This document shows positions 1-25,947 of a stretch of DNA of 64,000 nt, piece after piece. Position numbers and translations under genes: made by a program. Origin of the DNA: an uncultured Alphaproteobacteria bacterium (GTDB lineage Bacteria; Pseudomonadota; Alphaproteobacteria; SMXQ01); the NCBI GenBank assembly GCA_963732875.1, contig CAVTBD010000001.1, positions 20,780 through 84,779 of the forward strand. Direction: 5' to 3'. The first letter of the stretch is position 1. Each line of letters begins with the position of its first letter. Under the pieces are notes generated by a model, which was not told the origin of the DNA, did no database searches, and saw nothing but the letters and a program-made list of their open reading frames with translations.

Positions 1-296
1 TGTCGATCGTCTACGGCCTGCCCGACATCCACCAGCTGCGCATCGAGCAGGCGATCGCCACGTTCTCGCCCAACACGCTGTTCTCGGACGCGACCATCGC
101 CATCATGCACCCGGCGACGCGCGCGCTCGGCCTCGTGTTCCGTAGCCAGCTCGAGGGCGCGGTTCTGGGCGCGCCGCTGCCGCTGGGCCAGTCGCTGCTG
201 CTGGTGTGGCCGCAGATCACCGGCCTGATCGCCGCCACCATCGTGGTGTTCACGCTGACCTATGTGGCGTTCCAGCGCCAGGAAATCCGAGCGTAG
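1..296 (+). CDS. ABC-2 type transporter permease, C-terminal fragment (5' end outside window)
   Basis: The frame open from position 3 reads ...SIVYGLPDIHQLRIEQAIATFSPNTLFSDATIAIMHPATRALGLVFRSQLEGAVLGAPLPLGQSLLLVWPQITGLIAATIVVFTLTYVAFQRQEIRA*, a hydrophobic permease-like C-terminus. Confidence 0.4.
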   Translation, partial: SIVYGLPDIHQLRIEQAIATFSPNTLFSDATIAIMHPATRALGLVFRSQLEGAVLGAPLPLGQSLLLVWPQITGLIAATIVVFTLTYVAFQRQEIRA

Positions 297-315
297 GGGA
301 CGTTGAAGTCCCTTG

Positions 316-1226
316 TTAATTCTGTGCCGCGCCCAGCATGTTGGACAGGCTTGCGGCGGCCGTTTTCAACATCCTGACGGCGACACCGTTTTCATCAGGG
401 TCGAACGAGTATCTGAGCCGACCAGGGACAGGCCGTGGCAGGCGGCCGCCGGCCCCAAGACCGGTGCCACAACCGCCGAAAGCATGGGGTCGCGAAGCCC
501 TTCCGCCCGGGCGAAGCTGGCCCGCCGTGCTCCCCGTCTTATCGTGTCGATGTCGTTTGGTCCCAATCGCTGACCACGCGGCGCGCTTTAATTCCACGCT
601 CCGAGATCGCGATCGACGATGGATTGTGCGTCGGCTGAGCCCTGATGGGCCAGGAATATCCAACCGGTCGCCGTGGCGACCGTCGACAGATTTATGCCCT
701 CACGAATCCGGATGGCGATATCCAGTTGACCACGCTCTCCACGAATCACCGTTGGCCCATTCGTCCCCCACACGCACAGGATCGAAACGAGCCTCGTATC
801 GTCGGTAAGCCTTTGCATCACGTCCGAGGCCAGCTTGATGCTGTCGACCCGCCCGAATGCGAACAGGCCAAGCTCGAGGATCGCGGGGCCGAGATCGAAT
901 TTTCCGGACTTCTGGTCCTGCACCAGGAAGCCGCTCTGTGCCAGCGTTCCCACATAGCGTGATGCCCGGGTCACGGACATATCGCTGAAACGTGCGACCT
1001 CCGAGATCGAGACCGGCCCCTTCATCTGCGTGAAACTGCGGAGAATGGAAAGCCCGGTGGCGAGCGTCCTGCTACCCGCCCCTCGGGGCGGCGGGAGACG
1101 GGACTCCCGGAAAAGATTTTTTCCGGCTTCCTGAGGCGCTGCGCCCTGGCATTTCTCCCTCCCGATTTTACGAAGCGCGTCGGTTCGCACCGGCTCTTCA
1201 CGGCACCACTGTCCCAAGCCAACCAC
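316..1226 (-). CDS. IclR-family transcriptional regulator, apparently frameshifted twice near the C-terminus
   Basis: ORF 588..1226 has the IclR HTH (LATGLSILRSF...ISEVARFSDMSVTRASRYVGTLAQSGFLVQD) and effector-domain start (LSTVATATGWIFLAH). The IclR-like C-terminal continuation lies in two other minus frames: 366..566 (GLRDPMLSAVVAPVLGP...GLSLVGSDTR) and 316..~400 (...VRMLKTAAASLSNMLG). Confidence 0.55.
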
Positions 1227-1267
1227 TGCCCCCCGTTGACTTATCCGCTTGCGCCGGACTAGAAGGA

Positions 1268-1312
1268 TATTATCAGAAATAAAAATAATTTATCAAAATA
1301 TAATAAATAAGG
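1268..1312. promoter_or_regulatory. AT-rich divergent promoter/operator region between the IclR gene and the Rieske oxygenase gene
   Basis: tattatcagaaataaaaataatttatcaaaatataataaataagg is about 90% AT in a ~68% GC genome, preceded by TTGACT and followed by an AGGAG-like SD before ATG 1371. Confidence 0.4.
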
Positions 1313-1370
1313 AGCGGCCGCGTCTCCCCCCGGGAAGCGTTCGGCCGAACGAGAAAACGAGGGCACATCC

Positions 1371-2515
1371 ATGAACGCGGCCGACGGCACAGACTTCATT
1401 CATACCGGGCCGGGAACTCTCGCGGGCCGCTACCTCCGGAGCTTTTGGCAACCGATCCTGCTGTCCGAAGAGCTCCTACCGGAACGACCGCTGCGCGTTT
1501 ACGTCATGGGCGAATGGCTGACCGCTTACCGGGGCGCGAGCGGTCGCGCCTACGTGACGGAAGACCGGTGCCCGCACCGCTCTACGCAACTGTCCCTCGG
1601 CTGGGTCGAGGGCGACAACCTCCGCTGCTTCTATCATGGCTGGATGTTCGGCCCCGAAGGGCGGTGCGTCGAACAGCCGGCCGAGGGCAACAACACCCTG
1701 AAGGACCGGATCAGAATCCTGGCCTGCCCCGTGCGTGAATACATGGGGATGGTGTTCGCCTATCTGGGGGAAGGCGAGGCCCCCGAGTTTCCGTTGCTTC
1801 ACGGAAATCGACCTCGACCAGGATACGGTCTTCTTCCGGCGCCACGACGTGCCGTGCAACTACTTTCAGCGCATCGAGAACGACCTCGACGAGCTGGCAC
1901 ATCCACTTTGTCCATCGTGTCTCGACCAAGAAGGTTGGGCTCGACGAAATTCCGGAACTCCAGATTTCGGAGACGGAATACGGTGTCCTGCGCAAAGGTG
2001 TCCGGATCGACGAAGGCAAGAACGTCACGCGCACCGGACATTTCCTCATGCCCAACATCCTGATGGTGGTGACGCCGGGTCGGCCCGCCCGTCCCGAATG
2101 GCAGGTCCACATTGCCTGGCGCGTGCCGGTCGACGACGAGAACATGTGGACGTTCGTCGTCACGGCCCGCAAAGGCAGGGGCGGTGGCCTGCAGCAGCGC
2201 CCGCACGTCGAACCCGACCCCATGTACTACACCAACGAGATTCTCGCCGGGCGCATGCGGGTCCAGGACATCGACCCGGACTATCCCGCTCTGTTCAACG
2301 TGCAGGATAACGTCGCCCTCGGCGGACAGGGAGCCATCGTCGACCGCTCCCGTGAACAGCTCGGCCGATCGGACAAGGGCGTCGTCTTCATCCGGCGCAT
2401 CTGGATGCGCGAGCTGCGCGCCCTGGCGGAAGGCAAGCCCATGAAGGCCTGGCGCCGCCCGCCTGAGAACATGCTGGATTACACCTCCAGGGAAATGGGA
2501 CTGGCGATGTCGTGA
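1371..2515 (+). pseudogene. Rieske non-heme iron oxygenase alpha subunit (VanA/phthalate-dioxygenase-like), disrupted by two frameshifts
   Basis: The N-terminal frame (1371..~1800) has the Rieske motif CPHR..(16)..CFYHGW and is about 60% identical to the intact paralog at 4038. Homology continues in frame +1 (NYFQRIENDLDE...) and frame +2 (2048..2515, HIAWRVPVDDE...MRELRALAEGKPMKAWRRPPE). Confidence 0.7.
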
Positions 2516-2595
2516 TCCGACGGTACCGCACACAACAATTCAAACCATAAGACCAAAAACAGAAGGAGACTTCAGATGGAGGCAAGACCTCACGT

Positions 2596-3678
2596 GTGGC
2601 CGTGGCCGCTCTCGCCATTGCGGTAATGATGGGCTTCGCAGGACCCGCCAGCGCCGCGGACCTGCCCAAGGCGACGCAGGACATTCTCGCACATATGAAG
2701 CTGAACGCCTCCGTGCTCGACGGCCTTGACCGGGAACTCGCCGTTCCCGAGGCCTGGATCGACGGCGCGAAGAAGGAGGGCGTGGTTCGCATGGTCTCGA
2801 CCTTCGACACCGCGCAGTACCGCAAGCTGATCCGGCCGTTTCACGAGCGCTACCCGTTCATCAAGGTCGAGTACAACCGGTCGTCCTACCAGCAGCGGGT
2901 CACCAACGTCCTCATTTCCTACAAAGAAGGCCGCTACACGACCGACGTCGTCAGCAGCTTCGGCGGCGGCATCGCACTTTTCCGCAAGGCGAATGCCCTG
3001 GTGGACCTCAGGAACCTGCCCGGCTACCAGAACATGGACGCCAAATCGCGCAGCCCGGACGGCTTCTGGATCGGCTACCGCCGTCAGTACTTCTGCACTG
3101 CCTACAACACCAACCTGGTCAAGAAGGCCGACCTGCCGAAGAAGTGGACCGACATCCTCGACAACCCGGCGTGGCGGAACGGCAACCTCGCCGTCAACAA
3201 CTTGCCCCAGGTGTGGCTACTGCCGCTGTGGGGCACGTATGGGGAAAGCTATGTCCGGGATTTCGTTTCCCGGCTGTTCGACAACGTCAAGCCGCAGGTC
3301 CGCAAGGAAGGCGCCAATGCCATGGTGGGGCTTACCGTCGCCGGTGAATTCCACATGGCCATCCCCGCGTCGGGCGCGCGCACCTACCAGATGCTTCAGA
3401 AGGGTGCGCCCATCGGGTTCCACTGTCCGGAACCCGTGCCCACGCTGGTGGCCGGTATGGGCATCGTGCGTGGCAACCCGCACCCCAACGCGTCACGCAT
3501 ACTCGTGAACTGGTTCGTGTCCAAGGAGGGCCAGGCGGCGTTCTATTCGGCGACCTTCTCGCCGCTCGCGCACAAGGACCTGCAGAGGCGCGAATCTTGC
3601 TGGCCGGACACTATGAGACCTGAGGGGGCGTCCACGCAATCTCAATCAATATTTGTATCTTTATTACCTATTATATAA
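2596..3678 (+). CDS. ABC transporter periplasmic substrate-binding protein (family-1 SBP, iron/thiamine-type fold)
   Basis: Signal peptide AALAIAVMMGFAGPASAADLP followed by an SBP-like sequence. GTG start. The C-terminal ~30 aa look aberrant. Confidence 0.55.
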   Translation: MAVAALAIAVMMGFAGPASAADLPKATQDILAHMKLNASVLDGLDRELAVPEAWIDGAKKEGVVRMVSTFDTAQYRKLIRPFHERYPFIKVEYNRSSYQQRVTNVLISYKEGRYTTDVVSSFGGGIALFRKANALVDLRNLPGYQNMDAKSRSPDGFWIGYRRQYFCTAYNTNLVKKADLPKKWTDILDNPAWRNGNLAVNNLPQVWLLPLWGTYGESYVRDFVSRLFDNVKPQVRKEGANAMVGLTVAGEFHMAIPASGARTYQMLQKGAPIGFHCPEPVPTLVAGMGIVRGNPHPNASRILVNWFVSKEGQAAFYSATFSPLAHKDLQRRESCWPDTMRPEGASTQSQSIFVSLLPII

Positions 3679-3933
3679 TCCGCCTGGCGCAAGAGCAGCG
3701 GCGAAGGCGAGGAAAAGACTGTTTCCGTCAAGGTCGAGGCCGTCAAGAAGGGGGGCCGTGAGGTCACCTTTATGACCGCCGGCAAGAAGGGGAGCGTCGG
3801 CATCAGCGCCCGGAGCACGAAAGTCACGGTCAACGGCAAGCCCGTCCGCCGCACCTCGTTAAAGCCCGGCATGACCTGCGACGTGACCTACCACGGTAAC
3901 GGTAGCCAGGCGAGCGTGATCGCCTGCAAATAG
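3679..3933 (+). other. Small ORF fragment (~53-84 codons), in the same frame as and immediately after the SBP stop; no good start codon
   Basis: ...KTVSVKVEAVKKGGREVTFMTAGKKGSVGISARSTKVTVNGKPVRRTSLKPGMTCDVTYHGNGSQASVIACK*. Preceded by an anomalous AT-rich junction at 3640-3676. Confidence 0.2.
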
Positions 3934-4037
3934 GCGGCAACCTGTTCCCGCCGTCGCGCTATCTCGCCTATTGAGCGGGCGCGGCGGCGGAAGGATGATC
4001 CCGTCCTGACGGGTCGGCAACACCGAGAGATGTCACC

Positions 4038-5273
4038 ATGACCAAGGCAAATACGGATTTCGTGCATGTCGGCCCCGGCACGCCCGCGGGCCGGTGGCTG
4101 CGCCGCTTCTGGCAGCCGGTCTATGTCGCCGCACGCCTGGAACCGGGCTGGGCGAAACGCATACAGATCATGGGCGAGCACTTCACGCTCTACCGCGGCG
4201 ACACAGGCACGGCGCACGTCATCGCAGACCGTTGCCCGCACCGCAAGACGCAGCTCTCGACCGGCTGGATCGAAGGCGACGACATCCGGTGCTTCTACCA
4301 CGGCTGGAAATTCGCCGGCGATGGCAGATGCCTGGAAACGCCAATGGAGCTCGATGCGGTCAGGCAGAAGGCCTGTATCCGCTCTCATCCCGTCCGGGAA
4401 TATCTCGGGCTGATCTTCGCTTATCTCGGCGAAGGGGAGCCGCCGGCATTCTCTGAGTTTCCCGAGCTCGAGGAGGACAACGGCTATCCGCTCGCGGTGA
4501 CGCGCACGGAGCTGAGATACAACTACTTCCAGCGCGTGGAAAATGACCTCGACGAGGCGCACGTGCACTTCGTGCACAAGTATTCGGCCGAGAACACGAA
4601 CGAGTTCGGGACCCTGCCCGAAGGCTTCCGCGCCGAGGAAACCGACTACGGCATGCTGCGGCTGACGACACGGGACCGCAACGGCAAGAAGGACGTGCGC
4701 CGCAAGTACTTCCTCATGCCCAACGTCACGCTGACCTCGCCACCGCCGGCGACCGAGCTGGACATCTGGGCACCGCATCTCGCCTGGCGCGTGCCGATCA
4801 CGGACGAACTGACCATCAGCTTCGTCGTCACCCGCAAGAAGCCGCGCCCGCCGAGCGTCGCGTCCCGGACGTACCAGCCGGCGCAGGAGATCGTCGACGC
4901 CATCCTGGACGGCCGCATGCGCATGCGGGACGTCGACCCCGACCATCCCCGCCTGTTCTTCATACAGGACACCGTCGCGTGCAGCGGCGTGGGCCGCCTG
5001 CACGAGGACCGGGAGAACGAAATGCTGGGGCGCTCGGACGCGGCCGTGGCGCTGCTGCGCCGCATCTACGCGCGGGAAATCGAGGCCCTGCAGGAGGGCC
5101 GCCTGATCAAGCAATGGTGCCGCCCGCCCGAAAAACTGGTGGTCGGCTTCTTCCCGGCGAGCGCGACGGAATTGCCTTTTCGACTTGCCATCAGGCGCGC
5201 AAGGTCGCGCCCACGGTCTTCTCGGCGGCGGCGACGATCTTCTTCGCCACCGCCTCGATCTCGGCCTCGGTGA
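4038..5273 (+). CDS. Rieske non-heme iron oxygenase alpha subunit (VanA-like), intact paralog
   Basis: CPHRKTQLSTGWIEGDDIRCFYHGW Rieske motif and NYFQRVENDLDEAHVHFVH mononuclear-iron motif. The C-terminal ~50 aa (RS/RP-rich) extend past the point where the paralog stops and overlap pheT convergently. Confidence 0.8.
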   Translation: MTKANTDFVHVGPGTPAGRWLRRFWQPVYVAARLEPGWAKRIQIMGEHFTLYRGDTGTAHVIADRCPHRKTQLSTGWIEGDDIRCFYHGWKFAGDGRCLETPMELDAVRQKACIRSHPVREYLGLIFAYLGEGEPPAFSEFPELEEDNGYPLAVTRTELRYNYFQRVENDLDEAHVHFVHKYSAENTNEFGTLPEGFRAEETDYGMLRLTTRDRNGKKDVRRKYFLMPNVTLTSPPPATELDIWAPHLAWRVPITDELTISFVVTRKKPRPPSVASRTYQPAQEIVDAILDGRMRMRDVDPDHPRLFFIQDTVACSGVGRLHEDRENEMLGRSDAAVALLRRIYAREIEALQEGRLIKQWCRPPEKLVVGFFPASATELPFRLAIRRARSRPRSSRRRRRSSSPPPRSRPR

Positions 5274-7593
5274 GGGTCGCCTTGGCGGGCTGGAGCGTCA
5301 CCGCAACCGCGAGCGACACCTTGCCGTCGGGCACGCCCTTGCCGGCGTAAACGTCGAACAGGTCGACCGCGACGATCAGCGCCTTGTCGGCGCCCCGGAT
5401 CGCGCGCACCAGCGCTTCCGCCGCCACGCCCGCGTCCACCACGAAGGCGAAGTCGCGCGCGACCGACTGGAACGGCGAGGGTGCGAACGGCGGCCGGGTC
5501 TTGCCACCCTTCACCTTCGGTTCCGGAATCGCGTCCAGCATCACCTCGAAGCCGACCACCGGGCCCGTCACGTCCATCGCCGCAAGCACGCCCGGATGGA
5601 TCTCGCCGAACGCCGCGAGCACGGTCTTGGGTCCGAGCCGGAGCGTGCCCGAGCGGCCGGGGTGGTACCATTCGGGCGCTTCCGTGAAGGTCTGGAGCGA
5701 GGCCACCGGGGCGCCGCATTCGGCCAGCGCGGCGAGCGCATCGGCCTTCGCGTCGAACGCATCGACCGCGCGGCGTGGTACGGCCCAGTGGCGCGGACCG
5801 GCGGCGCCCGCGCGGATACCGCCCGCCACCAGCGCCTGACCGGCGGGGGTGGCGTCGGCATAGGCCGGGCCGACCTCGAACAGGGCCGCGTCCGGGAAGC
5901 CGCGCGCGGCATTGCGCCCGGCGGCCGCGATCAGGGCCGGCAGGGTCGAGGGCCGCATGTCTGTGAGCTCGGATGAAATCGGGTTGAGCAGCTTGAGCTC
6001 GGCCGCGCCGCCGCCGAACAGCCGGGCTGCGCGGTCATCCACGAACGAGAAGGTGACCGCCTCCAGCAGCCCGCGCGCGGCGAGCGCCCGCTTGGCGAGC
6101 GCGCGGCGGCGCTGGCGCGGGGTCTCGGCGGGCTTGGCGAGCGCCCCGGGGCGCGTGAGCGACACCGACGGAATCGAATCGTAGCCGGCGACGCGCAGCA
6201 CCTCCTCCACCAAGTCGGCGGGGATCGAGACGTCGGCCCGCCACGACGGCACCCGCACGTCGAGGCCGCCCGCGCCAGGCTTCGCCTCGAAGCCGAGCGC
6301 GGTCAGGATCTCGACGATGCGCGCCTCCGGCATGTCGACGCCGCCGCGCCTGTGCACGTCGGCGGGCGCGAAGCGGATCACGGCGTCGCGCACCGGCGCG
6401 GCGCCTGCCACCACCAGCTCGGACGCCTCGCCGCCGCAAATCTCCAGTATCAGCTGCGTCGCCGCCTCGATGCCGTCCTCGGCGGACGCCGGATCGACGC
6501 CGCGCTCGAAGCGGTAGCGCGCGTCCGATTCGATGCCGAGGCGACGCCCGGTGGCGGCGATGGCGGTGGGCTCGAACCACGCGGATTCGAGCAGCACGTT
6601 GACCGTGCCCGCGGTGCAGCCCGACGATTTACCGCCCATGATGCCACCCAAGGACAGTACGCCGTCCGCGTCGGCGATCACCACGGCGCCTTCGCCAAGC
6701 TCGTAGTTGCGCCCGTCGAGGGCCGCGAGCGTCTCGCCCGCACGCGAGAACCGCACGGTGAGGTTGCCGGCGATGGTATCGGCGTCGAACACGTGGAGCG
6801 GGCGGCAGCGGTCCATCAGCATCAGGTTGGTGATGTCCACCAGCGCCGAGATCGGGCGCAGCCCCACGTCGGTGAGCTTCTTCCGGAGCCAGTCCGGGCT
6901 CTCGCAATTCTTCACGCCCCTGATGTAGCGCCCGATGAAATGCGGGCAGGCGACGTTGCCGGCGGGGAAGTCGAGGGCAATCCCGATCGGGCTCTTGAAC
7001 GTGCCCTTGATCTGAGCCGGTATCATTGGGGCGAGCGTGCCGAGGCCGCGCGCGGCGAGGTCGCGGGCGATGCCGCGTATACCGAGGCAGTCGGCCCGGT
7101 TGGGCGTCACCGCGATGTCGATCACCGGCTGGTCGAGGCCGAGCGCGTCCGCCGCCGGGGCACCGATGTGCGCGTCCGCCGCCAGCTCGATGATGCCGGC
7201 ATGGTCGTCGCCGATCTCGAGCTCGCGCGCCGAGCACATCATCCCGGCCGATTCGACGCCGCGTATCTTGGCCTTGCCAAGCGTCACGTCGAGGCCGGGC
7301 ACGTAGCTGCCGGGCGCCGCGAACACGCCCCTGAGGCCCGCGCGCGCGTTGGGCGCGCCGCACACCACCTGCACCGTCTCAGTGCCGGTGTTGACCTTGC
7401 ACACCCTGAGCTTGTCGGCGTCGGGGTGCGGCCCCACCTCGACGATCTCGGCCACCGTGAAGGCGGCGAGCTTCGAGGCGCGGTCGTCGATCCCCTCCAC
7501 CTCGAGGCCGAGCGCGGTGAGCGCGTTGGCGATCTCGGCGACCGAGGCCTTGGTGTCGAGGTGCTCGGCGAGCCAGGCGGGGGTGAACTTCAT
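5191..7593 (-). CDS. pheT: Phenylalanine--tRNA ligase beta subunit
   Basis: 800 aa, [13 protein letters not shown]... B3/B4, tRNA-binding and anticodon-binding domain architecture. Start overlaps the pheS stop. Confidence 0.95.
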
Positions 7594-8667
7594 CGCGCGA
7601 GCCCCCGGGCGAGCGACGGCTGGTCGAGGCAGGCAAAGCCGTAGTGGCGCAGCCAGCGGATGTCGGCGTCGAAGAAGGTCCGCAGGTCAGGGATGCCGTA
7701 CTTGAGCATGGCGATGCGCTCGACCCCCATGCCGAAGGCGAAGCCCTGCCATTCGTCGGGGTCGAGCCCGCAATTGGCGAGCACGTTGGGATGGACCATG
7801 CCGGCGCCGAGAATCTCAAGCCAGCCTTCGCCCGCGCCGATCTTCAACTCGCCACCGCCGCGCGAGCAGCCGATGTCGACCTCGCACGACGGCTCGGTGA
7901 ACGGGAAATAGCTCGGCCGGAAGCGCAGCGGCAGGTCGTCCACCTCGAAATAGGCGCGACAGAAATCCTCAAGGCAACCCTTGAGGTGGCCCATGTGGGT
8001 CGCCCTGTCGATCACCAGCCCCTCGATCTGGTGGAACATGGGCGTGTGGGTCATGTCGGAATCGCAGCGATACGTGCGCCCCGGCGCGATGATGCGGTGC
8101 GGCGCCGGCTTGGTCATCATGGTGCGGATCTGCACCGGCGAGGTATGGGTGCGCAGCAGCATCGGGCGCTCGTCGGCGGCGGGCGGCAGATAGAAGGTGT
8201 CGTGCATCTGCCGCGCGGGATGGGCTTCCGGTATGTTGAGGGCGGTGAAGTTGTGGAAGTCGTCCTCGATGTCGGGGCCTTCCGCCACCTGGAAGCCCAT
8301 GTCGCCGAAGATGGCGACGAGCTCGTCCATGGTCTGGCTGATGGGATGGAGGCGGCCGTCCGCCTCGGGCCGCGCCGGCAGGGTGACGTCGATGCGTTCC
8401 TCGGCAAGCCTTGAGTTCGAGCGCGGCACGGCCGAGCGCGGCCTTGCGCGCCTCGAGCGCGGTCGCGACCGCGTCCTTGACCGCATTGAGCGCCTGGCCC
8501 GCGTCCTTGCGTTGGTCCGCCGGCAGCGCGCCCAGCCCCTTCATGGCCTCGGTGATGGAGCCCTTGCGGCCGAGCGCGGCGACGCGGATCTCCTCCAGCG
8601 CGTCGAGGCTCTCCGCCCCGGCGACCGCCTTCAGAATCCCGGCCCTGAGGGTGTCGGCATCGGCCAT
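7590..8667 (-). CDS. pheS: Phenylalanine--tRNA ligase alpha subunit, with an apparent +/-1 frameshift near 8405-8412
   Basis: N-terminal ([37 protein letters not shown]...) is in ORF 7969..8667. The catalytic core (…[41 protein letters not shown]...) is in ORF 7590..8486. The junction reads ELKA|RLAEERIDV. Confidence 0.85.
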
Positions 8668-8689
8668 GATAGTACTGCGCGTCCCTGAT

Positions 8690-8738
8690 TTCGTTTCGTT
8701 TTTAATAAGACAAAAGGGGCTGTCGAGACAGCCCCTTC
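8690..8738 (-). terminator. Rho-independent terminator between rplT and pheS
   Basis: Minus strand AAGGGGCTGTC-tcg-GACAGCCCCTT followed by TTGTCTTATTAAAAACG. Confidence 0.6.
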
Positions 8739-8777
8739 GTCACTTGAACTTTATATTGGCCGGCGTGGGCTGATCGC

Positions 8778-9140
8778 TTACGCGGCCTGAAGCGCCGCGC
8801 GGGCCTGTTCCACGATGGCCGTAAACGCCGCCGGATCGCGCGCGGCGATGTCGGCGAGCACCTTGCGGTCGAGCTCGATGCCCGAACGCTTGATGCCGTT
8901 CATCAGCTCCGAATAGGTGAGCCCGTTCTCGCGCGCGCCGGCATTGATGCGGCGGATCCACAGCGAGCGGAACTCGCGCTTCTTGGCCTTGCGGTCGCGG
9001 TAGGCGTAGCGCAGGCCCTTCTCGACCTTCTCGATGGCGATACGATAGCAGTCGCTGGCGCGACCGCGGTAGCCGGAGGCGAGATCGAGGATCTTCTTGT
9101 GGCGGGCGTGTGTGGTGACGCCCCTCTTGACGCGTGCCAT
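8778..9140 (-). CDS. rplT: 50S ribosomal protein L20
   Basis: [35 protein letters not shown]..., about 120 aa. Confidence 0.95.
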
Positions 9141-9151
9141 GGGTCTCTTCC

Positions 9152-9349
9152 TTAGGCGTAGGGGAGGAACTGCTTGATGATGTTGGCGTCGCCCTTGGCC
9201 AGGATGAAGGTGCCGCGTGCGGTACGCTTCATCTTCTGGGAGCGCTTGCGCAGGTTGTGGCGCTTGTAGGCCACGTTGCCGCGCACCTTGCCGGTGCCGG
9301 TGGTGCGGAAGCGCTTCTTGGCGCCGCTCTTGGACTTCAGCTTCGGCAT
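9152..9349 (-). CDS. rpmI: 50S ribosomal protein L35
   Basis: [42 protein letters not shown]..., 65 aa. Confidence 0.95.
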
Positions 9350-9583
9350 TGCCGGGAATCCTCGGGATTACGGTCGAAATACGGCCCGCCACCGGCCGGC
9401 CCCATGGCCGCCGGGCGGAGCGCAGGGTTATAGCGGGGACCGCCCCGGAATGCAAGGCCCCCCGGGCTGCCCAGGGCCACCCCGGGACGGCCGGGCCCCG
9501 GAATCCGCCGCCAAGGCTGTCCCGGCTCTCGACCCCGAATACATCTTGCGCTACAAGAACTTAGGAATCCTCGGGAATCCCGC

Positions 9584-11395
9584 ATGAAATCGTCCCTCCG
9601 TTCCGTCCCGGCGGTGGCGCGCGACGCGTTCCGCGCGCTGCGGCTCCGCTATACCTCCCTGCGCCGCACCGTGCGCAACTACGAGACCGGCCTGATCGCC
9701 TGCTGCGTGGTGGTGGGGGTCGTGGTCGGCCTCGTGACGGTCGGCCTGCGCGACCTCGTCTATTTCCTGCACCGGCTGGATTTCGCCCTGCCCGGCCACG
9801 CCTATCTCAGCGCCCAGACCAGCCTCGACCTCCTGCGGCTGGCCGTGGTGCCGGCGGCGGGCGGACTGTTGCTCGGGCTGTTGACCCTCGCCCTCCGGAA
9901 AATCCGGCCCAACGACATCGTCGATCCGGTCGAGGCCAACGCGCTCTACGGCGGCCAGATGTCGCTGCGCGACAGCATGCGGCTCACCGGCTACACGGTG
10001 GTGTCCAATGCCTGCGGCGCCTCGGTCGGTATGGAGGCCGGCTACAGCCAGCTCGGCGCCGGCATCTTCTCCGTGGTCGGGCGCTACTTCCACCTGCGCC
10101 GCGAGGACCAGCGCATGATGGTGACGGCGGGTGCCGCGGCGGCGATCTCGGCCGCCTTCAACGCGCCGCTGGCCGGCGCCTTCTACGGCTTCGAGCTGAT
10201 CCACGGCAGCTACACCACGCGGGCGCTCGCCCCGGTCACCGCCGCGTCGCTGGCGGGCGCGCTGGTGGTGCGCCTGCTCGGCACCGACCAGCCGCTGTTC
10301 GAGGTCGCCGGTCGCTTCGTGATCCCGCACTGGTACTACCTGCTGTTCGGGCTGCTCGGCATCGCCGCCGCCGGGCTCGGCATCCTCACCATGAAGAGCG
10401 CGACCTGGATCGAACGCCTGCTGCGCGCGACCCGCCTGCCCACCTGGCTGCGGCCCGCCGCGGGCGGTGTGATCCTGAGCCTGATCGCGCTCGGCTCGCC
10501 CCAGGTGCTCGGCAGCGGCCATGGCGCGATCCAGTGGCACCTCGACACCCAATGGACCTTCACCGCGCTGGCGCTCCTGCTCATGGGCAAGCTGGTGGCC
10601 TCGGCGGTCTCGCTCGGCGCCGGTTACCGCGGCGGCCTGTTCTCCTCATCGCTGTTCCTGGGCGCGCTGCTCGGCGCCACCTTCGTGCAGGCCATCGACC
10701 TCGCGCTGCCGTCGCTGGTGGACCAGCGTACCGTCTTCATGCTGGTCGGCATGGGCTCGGTCGGCGCGGCGATCATCGGCGCGCCCTTCACCATGGTGTT
10801 CCTGGTGCTGGAAGCGACCGGCAGCTTCCCGGTGACGCTCGGCATGCTGGTGGGCGTGGTGCTGGCCGCGACCATCGTGCGGCTCACCTTCGGCTATTCG
10901 TTCTCGACCTGGCGCTTCCACCTGCGCGGCCTGCCACTGCGCGGCGGCCACGACATCGGCTGGATCGCCGGCCTGACGGCCGGGCGCCTGATGCGCTCGG
11001 ACGCGAAGACCGTCCCGGCCGGCATGACCCTCGCCGGCCTGCGCCAGACGGTGCCGCTCGGCAGCAGGAAGTGGGCCTTCGCGGTGGACGATACCGGACG
11101 CTACGTCGGCATGATCGACATCGCCGCCGCCCACGACCACGACCTCGACGACGTCGCCGCCAACCTGATCGCGGCCGACCTCGCCACGGGGCGCAGCAGC
11201 TACATGCTGCCCGGCGACAACATCCGCACCATCCTTCAGCAGTTCGGCGACGCCCAGGCGGAGACCCTGCCGGTGCTGAGCTCGGAGGCCGAGCCGCGCA
11301 TCCTCGGCTATCTGACGGAGGCCTTCTGTCTCAAGCGCTATGCCCAGGAGCTGGAACGGCGTCGGCGCGACGAGCTCGGCATGGCCGAGCTCTAG
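9584..11395 (+). CDS. ClC-family voltage-gated anion channel/antiporter with C-terminal CBS domains; non-canonical selectivity-filter motifs
   Basis: GAAAAISAAFNAPLAGAFYGFELI is the ClC hallmark. The gating Glu is present in GASVGMEAG (canonical GREGP). The GSGIP serine motif is absent (region ...RPNDIVDPVEANALYGGQMS...). GxFxP reads GYRGGLFSSS. CBS-like tail (GRYVGMIDIAAAH...). Confidence 0.8.
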   Translation: MKSSLRSVPAVARDAFRALRLRYTSLRRTVRNYETGLIACCVVVGVVVGLVTVGLRDLVYFLHRLDFALPGHAYLSAQTSLDLLRLAVVPAAGGLLLGLLTLALRKIRPNDIVDPVEANALYGGQMSLRDSMRLTGYTVVSNACGASVGMEAGYSQLGAGIFSVVGRYFHLRREDQRMMVTAGAAAAISAAFNAPLAGAFYGFELIHGSYTTRALAPVTAASLAGALVVRLLGTDQPLFEVAGRFVIPHWYYLLFGLLGIAAAGLGILTMKSATWIERLLRATRLPTWLRPAAGGVILSLIALGSPQVLGSGHGAIQWHLDTQWTFTALALLLMGKLVASAVSLGAGYRGGLFSSSLFLGALLGATFVQAIDLALPSLVDQRTVFMLVGMGSVGAAIIGAPFTMVFLVLEATGSFPVTLGMLVGVVLAATIVRLTFGYSFSTWRFHLRGLPLRGGHDIGWIAGLTAGRLMRSDAKTVPAGMTLAGLRQTVPLGSRKWAFAVDDTGRYVGMIDIAAAHDHDLDDVAANLIAADLATGRSSYMLPGDNIRTILQQFGDAQAETLPVLSSEAEPRILGYLTEAFCLKRYAQELERRRRDELGMAEL

Positions 11396-11412
11396 CCTCA
11401 CGCCATCTTCCG

Positions 11413-13176
11413 TCAGTAGACGTCGCGCACGTAGCGACCGCTCGCCACCATCTGGTCGACCTCGACCGCGGCGGCGGCGTCCGACATGCCGCCCTCGCGG
11501 GCGACGATGGCGCGCAGCGCCCGGTCCACATCCTTGGCCATGCGGCTCGCGTCGCCGCACACGTAGAAATGCGCGCCCCCGGCGAGCCAGTTCCACAGGG
11601 CGGCGGCGTTCTCGGCCATGCGGTGCTGGACGTAGAGCTTTTCCTTGCCGTCGCGCGAGAACGCGAGGTCGAGGCGCGTGAGCGTGCCGTCGGCGAGGAA
11701 GCCCTCGAGTTCCTCACGATAGAGAAAGTCGGTGGCGCGATGACGGTCGCCGAACAACAGCCAGGCCGGACCGGGGACGCCCGCCGCGCGGCGCTCCTCG
11801 AGGAAGGCGCGGAACGGCGCGATGCCGGTGCCGGGACCGACCATGATGACCGGCGTCGCCGGATCGGCTGGCAGGCGGAAGCGCCCGTTGCGCTGGACGT
11901 AGACCCGGACCGGGCCGGCGCCGGCGCGATCGGCGAGGTAGGTCGAGCCGATGCCGACGCGGTCGCGCCCGTGGCTCGCGTAGCGCACCGCGGCGACGGT
12001 GAGATGGACTTCGCCCGGGTGCGCGCGCGGGCTCGACGAGATCGAGTAGAGCCGGGGCGCGAGACGCGGCAGGATCGCCACCAGGTCCTGGGGCTGGGCG
12101 AGCACGCCGGGATAGCGCAGCACCAGGTCGATCACGTCGCGGCCGTAGAGCCAGTCCGCGAGGTCGGCGCTGCGCTCGGGCGCGAGCAGGGCCGAGAGCG
12201 TGGCGTCGCCCGCGCGCGCGGCGAACTTGATGACGGTCGGCTGGGTCAGGCGCCCGATCGAGAGCCGACGCGCGAGCGCCGCGCCGAGCGGCAGGGTGCC
12301 GTCGAGCGTCACCCGGGCATCCGGGTCAAAGCCGGCCGCGGCGAGCAGCGCCTCCACCATCGCGGGCGGATTTTCGACCACCACGCCGAGCGCGTCGCCG
12401 GGCTCGTAGGCGACGCCGGTGCCCTCCAGCGACAGCGCGATGTGGCGCACGTCCTTGTCGGAACCGGGCGCGGTGAGCGGGCGGTTGTCGATCACCGGCG
12501 CCGCCACCGGGTTGGCGCGCGTGCCGGGCGCGTCTTCCGGTTCTTCGTCGGGGACCGCCACCACGGCAGGCGGCCCTTTATCGGCGACACCGGCCTCGGC
12601 GGCAAACGTCTCCAGCATGGCGTCGCGCCACGGCGCGAACGGCGGGGCGGGGTCGCCATCGACGTCGACACGGGCGGCGAGCCGCCGGGCGCCGAGCGCG
12701 GCGAAACGTTGGTCGAGGAACGCGCCGTAGCCGCAGAACTGCAGGTAGTTGGAATCGCCGAGCGCCAGCAACGCATAGGACAGGCCCGCGAGCGGCGCGC
12801 CTTCGGCGGCGGCAAGATCGTCGCTCACGCGGCGCGCGCTGTCGGGCGGCTCGCCTTCGCCGTGGGTGGCGGCAATCACCACCGCGTGGCCAAGCGCGCC
12901 GAGCTCTTCCAGGGTCAGCGTGCCGATGTCGCGCGCCGTGGCGTCGAAGCCGCGCCCCTTCGCCGCGCGGGCGAACTTGCGCGCGAGCCCCTCGGCGGTG
13001 CCGGTCTGGGAGGCGTAGAGCACCGCGAGCGGGACCGCCGGCGCGGGCGCCTCCGCCGCCTCCGGCGGCGTCAGCAGCGCCGCGAGGAAACCCGACAGCC
13101 AGGCACGCTGCTCGCGCGTGAACGGCGCGTCGTCGGGGATCAGCGGGATTTCGCGGAGCGGCGCGGGCACGGCCAC
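11413..13176 (-). CDS. Sulfite/nitrite reductase [NADPH] flavoprotein component (CysJ-like diflavin reductase)
   Basis: Flavodoxin domain (LAVLYASQTGTAEGLA...), FAD site RLYSISSSP and NADPH site GPGTGIAPFRAF. A ~45-aa N-terminal extension carries the motif APFTREQRAWLSGFLAALL. Confidence 0.8.
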   Translation of the reverse strand: MAVPAPLREIPLIPDDAPFTREQRAWLSGFLAALLTPPEAAEAPAPAVPLAVLYASQTGTAEGLARKFARAAKGRGFDATARDIGTLTLEELGALGHAVVIAATHGEGEPPDSARRVSDDLAAAEGAPLAGLSYALLALGDSNYLQFCGYGAFLDQRFAALGARRLAARVDVDGDPAPPFAPWRDAMLETFAAEAGVADKGPPAVVAVPDEEPEDAPGTRANPVAAPVIDNRPLTAPGSDKDVRHIALSLEGTGVAYEPGDALGVVVENPPAMVEALLAAAGFDPDARVTLDGTLPLGAALARRLSIGRLTQPTVIKFAARAGDATLSALLAPERSADLADWLYGRDVIDLVLRYPGVLAQPQDLVAILPRLAPRLYSISSSPRAHPGEVHLTVAAVRYASHGRDRVGIGSTYLADRAGAGPVRVYVQRNGRFRLPADPATPVIMVGPGTGIAPFRAFLEERRAAGVPGPAWLLFGDRHRATDFLYREELEGFLADGTLTRLDLAFSRDGKEKLYVQHRMAENAAALWNWLAGGAHFYVCGDASRMAKDVDRALRAIVAREGGMSDAAAAVEVDQMVASGRYVRDVY

Positions 13177-13177
13177 G

Positions 13178-14956
13178 TCACGAGGCCTCGCCGGTGGCGA
13201 TGGCGGCCAGTGCCGCCGCGTCCTGGCGGCCCGCGAAGGCGGCGAAGTCCTCGCCCTGGCGGCGCCCGTCCTTGTAGGCGCCGAGCAGGCGCGCGAGCGC
13301 CGCCGGCACCGCGTCGGCGGGCAGGCCCTTGGCGATCTCGCGCGCGAGCGCGCGTCCCTGGTCGGAGCCGCCGCCGAGATAAAGATGGTAGCCCTCGACG
13401 GTGCCGCCCTCGCCCGCCACCTGCACGCCGAGCAGCCCGATGTCGCCGATGTAGTGCTGGGCGCAGGAATTGGGGCAGCCGGTGAGGTGGATGTTGACCG
13501 GGCTGTCGAGCGCGACCGCGCGGTCGAGGTGCTTGCGGATGGCGAGCGCGTGGCCCTTGGTGTCGGTCATGGCGAACTTGCAGCCGGTGTTGCCGGTGCA
13601 GGCCACCAGCCCGGCCGAGGCCGAGCTCGCGCGGATGTCGAAGCCCATCGCCCGGACCTTGCGCTCGACCGTGGAGAGCTTTTCGTCGGGCACGTCGGGC
13701 AGGATCACGTTCTGCCACACGGTCAGGCGCAGCTCGCCCGAGCCGCACTCCTCGGCGAGCTCGGCGATCTTGTCCATCTGGGCCGCCGTCATGCGTCCCA
13801 CGGGAATCGCGATGCCGACGTAGCTCAGGCCCGGCGCCTTCTGGGTATAGACACCGACATGGCCGTGGCGGATGACGGCGCGCGGCGGCAAACAATCCGT
13901 GAGAGCGAGCCTTCGCAGCGGAAAGGCGAGCCTGGCCTCGGTCGCGGCCAGGAACGCGTCCATGCCGATGCGGTCGATCAGGAAGCGCAGGCGCGCCTTC
14001 TTGCGGTCGGTGCGGTCGCCCCGGTCGGCGAACACCCGGATCATGGCGGCGGCGGCGGCGACGCATTCCTCGGGCGCAACGATGATCCCCGCGTCCTCGG
14101 CGAAGAAACGGTGGCCGGTGATGCCCCCCAGCATCACGCGGAACCACACGCCGGGCGCGATGCCCTTGCCGTCGGGCACGCGCACCGCCTGGAAGCCGAT
14201 GTCGTTGGTGTCGGACACCACGCTGACGCTGCCGCCCGAATCGAACGCCACGTTGAACTTGCGCGGCAGGCCGAACAGGTCGCGGTTGTTGGCGAGGTAG
14301 AACTGCAGCCCCTGGGCGAGCGGCCGCACGTCGTAGAGCTCGGCCGGGTCGATGCCGGACGTCGGCGTCGCGGTGATGTTGCGCACGTTGTCGGCGCCGG
14401 CCCCGCGCGAGGTGAGCCCGGCGTTGGACAGCGCCATCAGCACGTTGACGATGTCGTGCGGCGCGAATTCGCGCAGCTGCACGTTGCCGCGCGTGGTCAC
14501 GTCGCCGTAGTCGTTGCCCCAGCGGCGCGCGATCTCGGCGAGCGCGCGCATCTGCACGGCCGTGATTATGTTTCCCGGCACGCGCACGCGCACCATGAAC
14601 GAGTCCTGCGCCGGCGCTACGTAGAACAGGCCGTGGAACTTGAAGCGGAACACGTCGCCGCCCTCGGGCGGGGTATCGGTGGCGGCGTGGTGCAGGATCT
14701 TGTCCCAGATGTCGAGCGGGTTGTGCTCGAGCTTGAGGCGCTCCTCGCGGGTGAGCTCGTCGAGCGGCACGCCGAACGCGGTCTTGCCCTCGGGCGGGCC
14801 CGCGAGGTTGGCGGGCGCTGCCCCCGGCTCGTGGGTCAGGCGCCCGTCGGCGCCCTCCCCCACGAACGGCACCATCCCGCGGGCGCGCAGGCCCGCCGCG
14901 TAGCCTTCCAGGTACTCCTTCTGCGCCTTGGTGAAGGGCACGATCTCGGCACTCAT
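13178..14956 (-). CDS. Siroheme/[4Fe-4S] nitrite/sulfite reductase hemoprotein (CysI/NirA-like)
   Basis: 592 aa with the Cys cluster ...CTGNTGCKFA...TGCPNSCAQ, two NiR/SiR ferredoxin-like half-domains and the N-terminal motif VPFTKAQKEYLEGYAAGL. Confidence 0.8.
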   Translation of the reverse strand: MSAEIVPFTKAQKEYLEGYAAGLRARGMVPFVGEGADGRLTHEPGAAPANLAGPPEGKTAFGVPLDELTREERLKLEHNPLDIWDKILHHAATDTPPEGGDVFRFKFHGLFYVAPAQDSFMVRVRVPGNIITAVQMRALAEIARRWGNDYGDVTTRGNVQLREFAPHDIVNVLMALSNAGLTSRGAGADNVRNITATPTSGIDPAELYDVRPLAQGLQFYLANNRDLFGLPRKFNVAFDSGGSVSVVSDTNDIGFQAVRVPDGKGIAPGVWFRVMLGGITGHRFFAEDAGIIVAPEECVAAAAAMIRVFADRGDRTDRKKARLRFLIDRIGMDAFLAATEARLAFPLRRLALTDCLPPRAVIRHGHVGVYTQKAPGLSYVGIAIPVGRMTAAQMDKIAELAEECGSGELRLTVWQNVILPDVPDEKLSTVERKVRAMGFDIRASSASAGLVACTGNTGCKFAMTDTKGHALAIRKHLDRAVALDSPVNIHLTGCPNSCAQHYIGDIGLLGVQVAGEGGTVEGYHLYLGGGSDQGRALAREIAKGLPADAVPAALARLLGAYKDGRRQGEDFAAFAGRQDAAALAAIATGEAS

Positions 14957-14987
14957 GGCGTGCCTCCGCCGTTCATGCCGGTTGCCG

Positions 14988-15836
14988 TCATTCGGCCGGG
15001 GACATCCCTGCGGGCACCGCCGGCGCCGGCTGCGGCTTGACCTTGGGCGCCATGCCGCGATGGGTCAGGTAGATGGCGAAGCCGGTGAAGGTGAAGCCGC
15101 CGACGATGTTGCCGAGCGTCACCGGGATCTGGTTCCACAGCCACCAGTCGCCGAAGCCGACCTTGGCGCCGAGCAGCATCCCGGTCGGGATCACGAACAT
15201 GTTGACCACCGAATGCTCGAAGCCTTGCGCGAAGAACACCACGATCGGCAGCCACGCGGCGGCGATCTTGCCGACCGTGGAGGCCGACGTCATGCCCATG
15301 ACGACGCCGAGGCACACCATCCAGTTGCACAGGATCGCCTTGACGAAGCAGGTCACCAGGCCGGCCATGCCGAGATGCTCGTAGCCCAGCGTCTTGGCCT
15401 GCGCGATGGCGATGATTTTGGCCGCGATCGGGTCGGGCGCGCCCGCCGTGCCCATCTTGGAGATGGCGATGGCGTAGAGCCCGGCGTAGATCAGCGCGCC
15501 GATCAGGTTGCCGAGAAACACCCAGCTCCAGTTGACGAGCACCTGGAACGGGCTCGCCTTGCCCTCCAGCCAGGCGAGCGGCACCAGGGCGAAGCTGCCG
15601 GTGACCAGCTCGAGGCCGAGCAGCACGATCATCACGAAGCCTACCGGGAAGATCACGGCGCCGACGATCGGCTGGTCAGTCTGCACGATGGCGCCGATGG
15701 CGAGGCTGGTGGCGAACCCGAGGATCGCGCCCGACAGTGCGCCGCGGATGAGCAGGTCGCGCACCGGCAGGCCGATCTTCTTGATGCCGGCATCGACCAT
15801 CGTGTCGGCGACCTCGTTTGGCTTCATGTAGTCCAT
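14988..15836 (-). CDS. Formate/nitrite transporter (FNT) family channel; NirC/HSC/FocA-like
   Basis: MDYMKPNEVADT... with FNT signature regions (FPVGFVMIVLLGLELVTGSF, CNWMVCLGV). First gene of the FNT-cysI-cysJ-like operon. Confidence 0.8.
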   Translation of the reverse strand: MDYMKPNEVADTMVDAGIKKIGLPVRDLLIRGALSGAILGFATSLAIGAIVQTDQPIVGAVIFPVGFVMIVLLGLELVTGSFALVPLAWLEGKASPFQVLVNWSWVFLGNLIGALIYAGLYAIAISKMGTAGAPDPIAAKIIAIAQAKTLGYEHLGMAGLVTCFVKAILCNWMVCLGVVMGMTSASTVGKIAAAWLPIVVFFAQGFEHSVVNMFVIPTGMLLGAKVGFGDWWLWNQIPVTLGNIVGGFTFTGFAIYLTHRGMAPKVKPQPAPAVPAGMSPAE

Positions 15837-16118
15837 AACACCCCTCCCGCGGGTGGCAGCGCGCCCGCGTCGCATGAGACAGGAACAGTCCTGCCTTCAG
15901 GTATTCAAGGGGCGTGCCAGTTCACGGAGGGGACGGTGGCGCGCGGACGGGCGCGGGCGCGCCCGGCATAAACGCGATCCGCGGCGCGGGAACTGCCTCA
16001 AAGCGTGCAGCACCCCGTCAAAATTTGTGCAGTGCCCCGAAACGACGGCGCCGGCCCCAAGGGACCGGCGCTGCGAATGCGGAGCGGGAACGCGGGCGCG
16101 TCAGAACCTGTTTAGTTT

Positions 16119-16167
16119 AGAGCAGGATCACGGTTCAGATTGAGTCAACCTGAACCGACCCTGCTCT
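16119..16167. repeat. About 50-bp nested palindromic repeat element (copy 1 of 2), overlapping the infC stop
   Basis: AGAGCAGGATCACGGTTCAGATTGAGTCAACCTGAACCGACCCTGCTCT. A near-identical copy is at 29241-29290. Confidence 0.7.
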
Positions 16168-16702
16168 AGCGCGGCGCGATCACCATGGTCATCTGGCGGC
16201 CTTCCATCTTGGGGATCGCCTCGACCTTGGCCTTCTCGTCCATCTCCTGGCGCACCTTGTTGAGCACCGCGAGGCCGAGCTCCTGATGCAGGAACTCGCG
16301 GCCGCGGAAGCGGATCGTCACCTTGACCTTGTCGCCCTCGTCCAGGAACTTGTGGATCGCCCTCAGCTTGACGTCGTAGTCGTGCTGGTCGATGCCGGGG
16401 CGCATCTTGATTTCCTTGACGTCGATGGTCTTCTGCTTCTTGCGCGCCTCGTTGGCCTTCTTCTGGGCCTGGTACTTGAACTTGCCGTAGTCGAGGATCT
16501 TGCAGACCGGCGGATCGGCGCTGGGGGAGACCTCGACCAGGTCGAGGCCGGCGGCTTCGGCCTTGGCAAGCGCCTGGGCGATGGTCACGACGCCGAGCAT
16601 TTCGCCGTCTTCGCCGACGAGGCGCACGGACGGGACGTGGATCGCTTCGTTCACGCGGGGGCCGCCCTTCGAGGGCGGCTGGGGGGAGGTGGGCCTGGCT
16701 AT
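16166..16702 (-). CDS. infC: Translation initiation factor IF-3, probable non-AUG (AUA) start
   Basis: IF-3 homology ([26 protein letters not shown]...[15 protein letters not shown]) extends upstream of the GTG at 16654 with no in-frame ATG. An ATA codon (16700-16702) is preceded by GGAGAG at -8. IF-3 autoregulation through a rare start codon is established knowledge. Confidence 0.8.
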
Positions 16703-16716
16703 GGAACGCTCTCCAT

Positions 16717-16760
16717 CAGTTGTTGACTGGGCAGTTGTTGAATGGGCAGTCGTTGATACA
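16717..16760. repeat. 15-bp tandem repeat x~2.5 (CAGTTGTTGAMTGGG) in the infC leader
   Basis: cagttgttgactggg cagttgttgaatggg cagtcgttgatac, directly upstream of the infC SD. Confidence 0.6.
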
Positions 16761-16881
16761 CGGCGGTGGTCGAAAACGGCAGGTGCCGGGACCGGGACGC
16801 AAACAGACCCACGCAGGGAGTCCCGGTCCTGAACGGAAACCGGCGATCCCTGAGTATGTTGTCTGTCTTATTTAAGGAGTC

Positions 16882-18856: not shown

Positions 18857-18940
18857 AGCCTTCGAATCCGGGGTTTCACGGGCCGGCGCCGGGCCGCTCC
18901 CGGCCGCCGCCGGGGGAGAGTAGCCGCGAGGGCGGCGGTG

Positions 18941-23396: not shown

Positions 23397-23503
23397 GGCG
23401 CGCGATCATAAGGCCGCCCGGCGGTCCCGTGAACCGGCCCTTCAAATTTGCCACCCTGCGGGTGGGCCTTGCGGGCGAGAGGCGTTTGCGCGAAACATGC
23501 GCC

Positions 23504-24283: not shown

Positions 24284-24424
24284 TGTCTTCGCCCTTGGAT
24301 CAGAATGTCGTCATGCCCCGGCCCTCGGGACTGCGCGTCATGCGAATGCGTGCTGCGCACGACGCGCGGCCCAAGGACAAGCTTCACGTCCAGGGCATCC
24401 ATCGAAGCGGCATCTCGACACTAG

Positions 24425-24583
24425 ATCGTCATTCCCGCGAAAGCGGGAATCCAGACGTGGAAATCCATAGGTTGCCAACATGGATCCCCGCCTTCGCGGG
24501 GGTGACGATTCGGTTTGGATGACTGCGGCTCGCGCGCAAATCAAAGAGAGCGGGCATTCGCCCGCGGCACGGGAATGACGACA
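24425..24583. mobile_element. MITE/REP-like element with ~13-bp terminal inverted repeats and internal GC hairpins
   Basis: Left ATCGTCATTCCCG(cgaaagCGGGAATCC hairpin) ... right CGGGAATGACGAC. Internal hairpins CCCCGCCttcGCGGGGG and GCGGGCattcGCCCGC. A degenerate partial copy lies at 24307-24345. Confidence 0.5.
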
Positions 24584-24606
24584 GGGAGTGAGGTGCCCGG
24601 CGTCCC

Positions 24607-25335: not shown

Positions 25336-25430
25336 GGCGGTGTCTCCTTTTCGTCGCTGGAACGCAGCCGGCGCCCCGGGAGTCCCGAAATCGTGACGGT
25401 CCAATGTGACAACATCGGGGCGCATCGCCG

Positions 25431-25919: not shown

Positions 25920-25947
25920 CTCCGTCTTTCAATATCCAGGAAGGGGT

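Follow-up and report, generated by a model that had tools for sequence, protein, structure and literature searches.

A conserved Rieske oxygenase module in an alphaproteobacterial contig: frame breaks that probably reflect consensus errors rather than gene decay

The stretch of DNA analysed here, called the window below, consists of 64,000 nucleotides of contig CAVTBD010000001.1 (positions 20,780 to 84,779 of the forward strand; assembly GCA_963732875.1) from an uncultured Alphaproteobacteria bacterium. Near its start lies an island which, according to the map of open reading frames (ORFs) and Pfam scans, comprises four genes: an IclR-type regulator, two Rieske oxygenases (oxygenases 1 and 2 below) and one periplasmic solute-binding protein (SBP) between the oxygenases. 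A previous reading of this DNA from its letters alone (the sequence-only reading) correctly saw two Rieske genes flanking an SBP gene, and proposed a duplicated module caught in decay or rearrangement, or one damaged by assembly insertions and deletions (indels). Of these options, our analysis supports assembly indels, and supports neither decay nor rearrangement. The island is probably an ordinary, intact and conserved module, in which the regulator is transcribed divergently from an operon of the other three genes. Its frameshifts, lost stop codon, nonsense codon and AT-rich patch in the window would be errors of the consensus. This explanation is favored because the lesions are missing both from a sister contig and from three contigs of a relative, and because two essential genes of this contig, pheS and thrS, carry frameshifts too.

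Each of the four genes carries lesions in the window. Two frame changes are indeed needed to read through the gene of oxygenase 1: alignment of oxygenase 2 with window positions 1201-2700 by tblastn passes through frames +3, +1 and +2, and the changes correspond to two surplus bases, A at 1801 and G at 1896. Deletion of only these two bases yields an uninterrupted ORF of 380 amino acids (aa) with intact Rieske and iron motifs. The ratio of non-synonymous to synonymous substitution rates (dN/dS) of this gene is 0.05 in comparison with L140, one of the contigs of the relative, and 0.14 in comparison with the sister contig; for oxygenase 2 it is 0.09 in comparison with L140. Apart from the two extra bases, oxygenase 1 shows no sign of decay, and the earlier claim that one of the copies had decayed is not supported. 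The regulator gene is broken as well, and the damage is greater than the two frame changes originally counted. It contains an in-frame TAA at 588-590, where the sister contig has GAA, four gap columns of missing bases between 414 and 457, and two further missing bases, at about 1081 and 1105, which throw the ATG at 1150-1152 out of frame. At the 5′ end of the SBP gene a single G is missing at 2578, so that the ATG at 2575 is out of frame; in the sister contig the extra G restores this ATG, which has a good ribosome-binding site. Finally, at the natural stop codon of oxygenase 2 (5172-5174) the window has TTG instead of the TAG of the sister contig, and homologues of this enzyme stop about 35 aa sooner than the window ORF, which bears out the suspicion that this stop was lost. 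The resulting RS/RP-rich tail, reading through to 5273, is the antisense of the pheT 3′ end, and the convergent overlap with pheT does amount to 83 bp (5191-5273).

The sister contig (ENA ERZ25039483 contig_25434) was found by exact look-up of the L20 protein of the window. It is 98.2% identical to window positions 1-19137, with 254 substitutions and 74 indels. Because the substitutions in the island genes are mostly synonymous (13 synonymous and 6 non-synonymous in oxygenase 1, 10 and 4 in the SBP; the counts for pheT are 40 and 38), the window and the sister contig must represent two real, closely related strains. Every frame break of the island is healed in the sister contig: those at 1801, 1896, 2578, 414-457 and 1081/1105, the TAA (GAA there), the TTG (TAG there) and the AT-rich patch described below. 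The sister contig has breaks of its own where the window is intact, in the SBP gene at 3099, in the IclR gene at 640, and many in pheT, pheS and thrS. Its lesions thus cluster in the reverse way: pheT has dozens of indels, the island two. A hybrid reconstruction was made by taking, at each place, whichever of the two versions keeps the frame. Other searches for conspecific sequences gave nothing: the exact-protein look-up of the window pheT had no match, the metagenome scan with the SBP revealed no conspecific contig, and the genome-contig scan with oxygenase 2 revealed no conspecific genome, the best match being 71% identical.

The differences between the two contigs are confined to positions 1-8500 and 16500-19000. 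Between them, positions 8500-16500 (rplT to fnt) differ by about 0.2% substitutions and one indel at 9493, whereas both flanks differ by 2-4%, the majority of these changes being synonymous. This mosaic divergence could represent a recent recombination or sweep tract in two strains, or a strain-collapsed assembly.

Similar breaks occur in essential genes of the contig. The reading of pheS switches from one frame to another near 8416, and the TIGR00468 model matches the C-terminal ORF from model position 48 on. The sister contig is one base shorter at this place and reads through. Likewise, thrS is split at about 17596, where one ORF covers TIGR00418 positions 1-336 and a second ORF, which overlaps it in another frame, covers positions 333-563; relative to the sister contig, which reads through, the window has an extra G at 17593. 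The other genes tested gave full-length or near-full-length matches (gltB, gltD, nirA, cysJ, trpA/B, kdsD, rpoN, aroA, rpsA, trkH, bacA and others), and the ORFs scanned in the 19-64 kb region mostly gave full-length family matches. A uniformly poor assembly was therefore rejected as an explanation, the errors being confined to the strain-variable segments. Two places in the 19-64 kb region are less regular. At 24300-25930, two ORFs on the minus strand (24607-25932 and 25431-25928) have a coding-like base composition at third codon positions (GC3) and no Pfam match, and for an epimerase-like ORF (22521-23405) the domain match is limited to the C-terminal half. Either additional frame errors or mere divergence of the genes could be the reason.

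The intact architecture of the module is conserved in a relative represented by three short-read contigs (L140, L141 and L142), which were reached via a cluster of oxygenase 1 homologues at 91% identity. Both L140 and L141 carry intact genes for the IclR regulator (280 aa), the first Rieske oxygenase (382 aa), the SBP (457 aa) and the second Rieske oxygenase (378 aa). L142 starts inside the module and carries the last three genes, also intact. These gene lengths agree with the hybrid reconstruction within two residues (for oxygenase 1, 380 versus 382 aa). The three contigs differ from each other by 0.6%, with 0-1 gaps in 7.4 kb. Window positions 334-5172 are collinear with L140 positions 737-5548 at 77% nucleotide identity, and the flanks are unrelated; the homology begins at the IclR stop codon and ends exactly at the natural stop of oxygenase 2 (5172). 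The module has a GC content of 63%, compared to 69-70% for the host. From these comparisons, the module is probably an accessory, horizontally mobile cassette of four genes that are kept together in differing genomic contexts. Its borders are sharp: one lies 16 bp from the pheT stop codon and the other at a small hairpin, GGGAC-GTTGAA-GTCCC (297-312). No integrase, repeats or tRNA were seen, no tRNA or Rfam element was found near the island, and the terminator scan gave nothing above chance.

Several observations weigh against consensus errors as the explanation. First, there are about 10 lesions in the 4.9 kb of the island versus 2 in about 6.5 kb of the neighboring essential genes. Second, the substitutions outside the patches that are derived in the window are distributed over the three codon positions as 7/5/11, versus 1/5/13 for those derived in the sister contig, which means less third-position bias in the window. 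Third, the AT-rich patch involves 85 bp with a strong GC-to-AT shift and does not look like a typical homopolymer-type error. Fourth, the sister contig is the sole near-identical comparator and is itself error-laden. Moreover, the consensus errors are deduced from the comparison of assemblies, not seen in reads or coverage.

Some of these observations would fit another explanation, namely that the module was genuinely inactivated very recently in the window strain and that the frameshifts in pheS and thrS are unrelated assembly errors. The greater lesion density of the island, compared to the adjacent essential genes, and the excess of first- and second-position changes among window-derived substitutions are both in line with it. 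With L140 as outgroup, the lesions are derived on the window lineage: 25 of the 30 indel columns in the island are window-derived and one or two are derived in the sister contig. We count this polarity as evidence for consensus errors too. In addition, the lower GC content of the module and its different context in the relative suggest that it is accessory and dispensable. We nevertheless regard recent inactivation as unlikely. Frameshift errors are demonstrable in essential genes of the contig, and the reversed clustering in the sister contig indicates that clustering is a property of these assemblies. Oxygenase 1 is under strong purifying selection and has no other defect, and at least 10 independent small lesions in 5 kb without a large deletion would be an unusual pattern of decay.

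A more specific version, in which the strain is inactivating an aromatic-catabolic cassette by a burst of small mutations, including hypermutation of 85 bp from GC to AT by an undescribed mechanism, is in our opinion very unlikely. Three signs of true pseudogenes were looked for, and the result was negative for each. The lesions do not recur in an independent assembly, given that the sister contig has none of them; selection is not relaxed toward a dN/dS near 1 and there are no further stops in oxygenase 1; and the essential genes of the same contig are not free of frame breaks.

The AT-rich patch in the SBP gene deserves separate consideration. The sequence-only reading had noted two anomalous AT-rich segments, one of them at the 3′ end of the SBP gene. 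A scan with 30-nt windows of GC content of 27% or less (the whole window has 69% GC) does pick out two such stretches, 1256-1318 and 3634-3685; the second lies inside the SBP gene and not at its 3′ end. The scan also picks out six other intergenic spots, so that short AT-rich stretches between genes are not unusual in the window. The longest AT-rich stretch of the window (63816-63946; 131 bp, GC content 0.26) is situated at its far end, beside small ORFs.

Over the whole patch, the GC content is 0.42 in the window versus 0.61 in the sister contig. The patch replaces the conserved coding stretch FLAWPDEIIGHEVAVRTPDLIVNEYPKLIPIWNAAW and gives rise to the TAA at 3676-3678. At the same place the sister contig has a GC-rich, in-frame sequence encoding ...HKDLQRREFLAWPDEIIGHEVAVRTPDLIVNEYPKLIPIWNAAWRKSSGEGEEK..., which unites the SBP ORF with the downstream ORF at 3679-3933, and the peptide under the patch is conserved among SBP homologues. 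The changes fall on codon positions as 17/11/13 (this count pools the patch with the cluster at 405-465 in the IclR gene). A diversity-generating retroelement was rejected as the cause, given that adenine is not specifically targeted and that all codon positions are affected. Theoretically, the patch may also reflect something that truly happened at this place and cut the SBP off from its C-terminal domain, such as targeted hypermutation, micro gene conversion or the excision of an element that left a footprint. In favor of such an event are the extreme composition of the patch, its length, which is about equal to that of the sequence replaced, and the identical sequence on both sides. At the same time, no direct or inverted repeats (insertion sequence ends, target duplications or attachment sites) flank the patch or link the two AT-rich segments, and the first half of the patch resembles a noisy, deletion-rich copy of the sequence in the sister contig. 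The lack of adenine specificity, the conservation of the replaced stretch in all homologues and the many other small errors in the contig also argue against a real event, which we consider highly improbable.

The last alternative, a recently duplicated catabolic module in mid-rearrangement with one of two tandem paralogs decaying, is suggested by the presence of two homologous oxygenase genes in the same orientation, 2.7 kb apart, but it is already refuted by the identity values and conserved synteny and retains next to no probability. The two oxygenases are 47% identical at the protein level, not about 60% as first estimated; only conserved blocks of their DNA reach 66-73%, the longest of them being 152 nt at 71%. 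Much closer orthologues of both exist elsewhere (91% for oxygenase 1, 71-85% for oxygenase 2), and the same oxygenase-SBP-oxygenase order is intact in L140-L142. Judging from these identities, the two oxygenases seem to be old paralogs kept together as a pair, and there is no recent duplication to be dated.

Returning to consensus errors as the preferred explanation, their source would probably be a long-read metagenome assembly, in which errors may concentrate where co-occurring strains differ, for example if coverage is low or mixed in strain-variable segments. Long-read assemblies are known to require polishing against indels (PMC9262707). In our view, frameshifts, "C-terminal extensions" and AT-rich "junctions" in this contig are no evidence of decay or rearrangement. 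Since damage of the same kind affects essential tRNA-synthetase genes, neither gene calls nor pseudogene counts from this assembly should be trusted before it has been polished. The locus is otherwise an ordinary accessory module, and only two of its features are mildly new: the combination of an orphan SBP with two divergent LigXa-like oxygenases, and a small OB-fold domain with a conserved cysteine pair at the SBP C-terminus. The features are listed in Table 1.

Table 1. Features of the module and of the essential genes used as controls, in window coordinates
Feature	Position	Strand	Remarks
IclR-family regulator (PcaR/PobR-like)	316-1152	-	280 aa if intact; broken in the window
Broken IclR-type gene region, as written	316-1226	-	From the ORF map
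Predicted divergent promoter/operator, AT-rich	1256-1318	.	Conserved in the sister contig and L140
Rieske oxygenase 1 ("copy 1"), LigXa-like	1371-2515	+	380 aa if intact; split over three frames in the window
Periplasmic SBP gene	2575-3933	+	457 aa if intact; signal peptide, SBP_bac_1/6/8 and C-terminal OB-fold domain
SBP ORF, as written	2596-3678	+	From the ORF map
AT-rich patch inside the SBP gene, probably corrupted	3596-3680	+	From alignments with the sister contig and L140
Predicted SBP C-terminal OB-fold domain ("start-less ORF")	3679-3933	+	In-frame piece 3′ of the TAA at 3676-3678
Rieske oxygenase 2 ("copy 2"), LigXa-like	4038-5174	+	377 aa if intact; stop position 5172-5174
Oxygenase 2 ORF, as written	4038-5273	+	411 aa; overlaps pheT
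pheT	5191-7593	Convergent with oxygenase 2	83-bp overlap with the oxygenase 2 ORF
pheS	7590-8667	-	Essential; frameshift near 8416
thrS	16882-18856	-	Essential; frameshift near 17593-17600

Both oxygenases contain the Rieske [2Fe-2S] ligands C-x-H...C-x2-H (CPHRSTQLSLGWVEGDNLRCFYH in oxygenase 1 and CPHRKTQLSTGWIEGDDIRCFYH in oxygenase 2), and both match the Pfam Rieske family with E-values of about 1e-19. The mononuclear iron motif N-x2-Q-x2-E-N-x2-D-x2-H-x4-H is present in oxygenase 2 (NYFQRVENDLDEAHVHFVH) and, once the extra G at 1896, which sits within this motif, is removed, also in oxygenase 1 (NYFQRIENDLDELHIHFVH). Oxygenase 1 matches the Pfam family LigXa_C (PF19301) with 32.3 bits (cut-off 27), over profile positions 209-255 of 304 only, and oxygenase 2 has no match to PF19301 at E<0.01. 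VanA_C is below the Pfam cut-off of 23.5 bits for both (19.8 and 17.4 bits). Among solved structures, the nearest is a putative phthalate 4,5-dioxygenase (7fhr, E-value 8e-36), followed by 9ina and 7qwt, both deposited as "Rieske (2Fe-2S) domain protein" only, then by the CarAa carbazole dioxygenase 1ww9 (E-value 2e-19), with DdmC and KshA lower. Many of the homologues carry the JGI automatic name "DDVA O-demethylase oxygenase subunit", where DDVA stands for 5,5′-dehydrodivanillate. By these similarities, both proteins may be classified as phthalate-family Rieske oxygenases (VanA/LigXa/PDO/CarAa type) that are LigXa-like, a better label than the "VanA-like" used in the sequence-only reading.

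No beta-subunit (small-subunit) gene is found in the module of the window, the sister contig or L140-L142. As that reading had also stated, no reductase partner is present nearby: the ORFs scanned in the window, namely the larger ones with coding-like composition and not every ORF, revealed neither a reductase nor a ferredoxin gene. The absence of a VanB-type gene is unremarkable because LigXa uses separate ferredoxin and reductase components.

The reconstructed 280-aa IclR protein aligns with positions 7-247 of 248 of TIGR02431 and positions 6-173 of 174 of IclR_C. Its TIGR02431 score is 74.7 bits (cut-off 284.75), which is consistent with a distant relative of the PcaR/PcaU/PobR subgroup. 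Both HTH_IclR and IclR_C are found in the L140/L141 orthologue and in the reconstruction, whereas the window ORF as written contains HTH_IclR only.

The AT-rich segment between this gene and oxygenase 1 differs from the patch in its conservation. Its core (1256-1313) is base-for-base identical in the sister contig, the first difference being at 1314, and the segment 1256-1318 is retained in L140 despite the 77% overall nucleotide identity. Within 1268-1312, two copies of the hexamer TTATCA with a spacing of 21 nt lie in a nearly pure A/T context common to the window, the sister contig and L140. A promoter scan revealed a -35/-10-like pair on the strand of the IclR gene (minus strand, 1296-1269). 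This conservation argues that 1256-1318 is a genuine divergent promoter/operator and no anomaly, and the TTATCA sequence is probably the binding site of the IclR protein.

The N-terminus of the SBP, MGGKTSRVAVAALAIAVMMGFAGPASAAD (MGGKTSRVAVA...), resembles a signal peptide as judged by eye, and the protein matches SBP_bac_1/6/8 in Pfam with E-values of 1e-15 to 1e-12. No cognate permease or ATPase genes stand beside the SBP gene in the module of the window, the sister contig or L140-L142. The ABC-2 genes upstream of the module are of exporter type and lie outside the conserved module. Full-length matches to the 457-aa SBP, each in a single ORF, occur in at least 8 JGI metagenome contigs. The 84-aa tail of the protein is a recurrent domain with 187 representative clusters, located C-terminally in binding proteins of the ABC and TctC types or occurring alone or in tandem. 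Because of these full-length homologues and the recurrence of the tail, the supposed start-less fragment at 3679-3933 is best explained as the SBP's own C-terminal domain, and the SBP ORF and the fragment form one gene; the fragment is indeed an in-frame piece after a TAA, as had been noticed, and is not a separate entity. The domain has an OB-fold of about 70 aa without a Pfam family of its own. In the tail, G53, G64, C67 and C83 are invariant, the cysteines forming an invariant pair. A 53-aa ORF (3772-3933) within the tail reads MTAGKKGSVGISARS...IACK. For the 125-aa tail of the SBP, a word-index search returned two matches only.

There are some other observations on the distribution of these proteins. 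The OB-fold domain, when alone or in tandem, sits near DUF5666/CusF-like matches. At nine loci with SBP homologues (L084-L089, L103, L108 and L112), the SBP genes are often in tandem and usually without an adjacent Rieske oxygenase. Among the loci seen, the oxygenase-SBP pairing was found only in the window, L001, L111 and L140-L142.

The module may function as follows. An effector-responsive IclR regulator would bind the conserved AT-rich operator. The oxygenases would oxidise or O-demethylate an aromatic acid, receiving electrons via a ferredoxin and a reductase encoded elsewhere, and the SBP could serve as a periplasmic receptor for a related substrate.

Comparison with known systems may provide some context for this possibility. 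LigXa is the oxygenase of the three-component DDVA O-demethylase of Sphingobium sp. SYK-6, together with the ferredoxin LigXc and the reductase LigXd (PMC6874591). Like LigXa, the proteins of the module are single-subunit oxygenases of the phthalate family with a Rieske center and a mononuclear iron, oxygenase 1 scores above the LigXa_C cut-off, and the ligXa-like genes of the window have no identified reductase or ferredoxin gene beside them, which fits the separate LigXc and LigXd. In contrast to ligXa, which has the MarR-type regulator DdvR, the module has an IclR-type regulator; it also has two paralogous oxygenases, and the LigXa_C match is partial. By analogy, the LigXa-like label might point to O-demethylation of 5,5′-dehydrodivanillate, a suggestion that comes from the automatic JGI names of the homologues. 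VanA/VanB share with the module the Rieske superfamily, the same iron-binding motif and a weak VanA_C similarity, but VanA_C stays below its cut-off, and a vanB-type gene is found neither in an adjacent position nor among the ORFs scanned in the window. For the alpha3 oxygenases 7fhr and CarAa (1ww9), the matches span the Rieske domain and the first part of the catalytic domain; there is little sequence similarity outside the region of the Rieske and iron motifs, and the substrates are different. Finally, the regulator resembles PcaR/PcaU/PobR in its end-to-end alignment with TIGR02431, in having both HTH_IclR and IclR_C, and in being divergent from the catabolic genes, although its score is far below the cut-off of that model.

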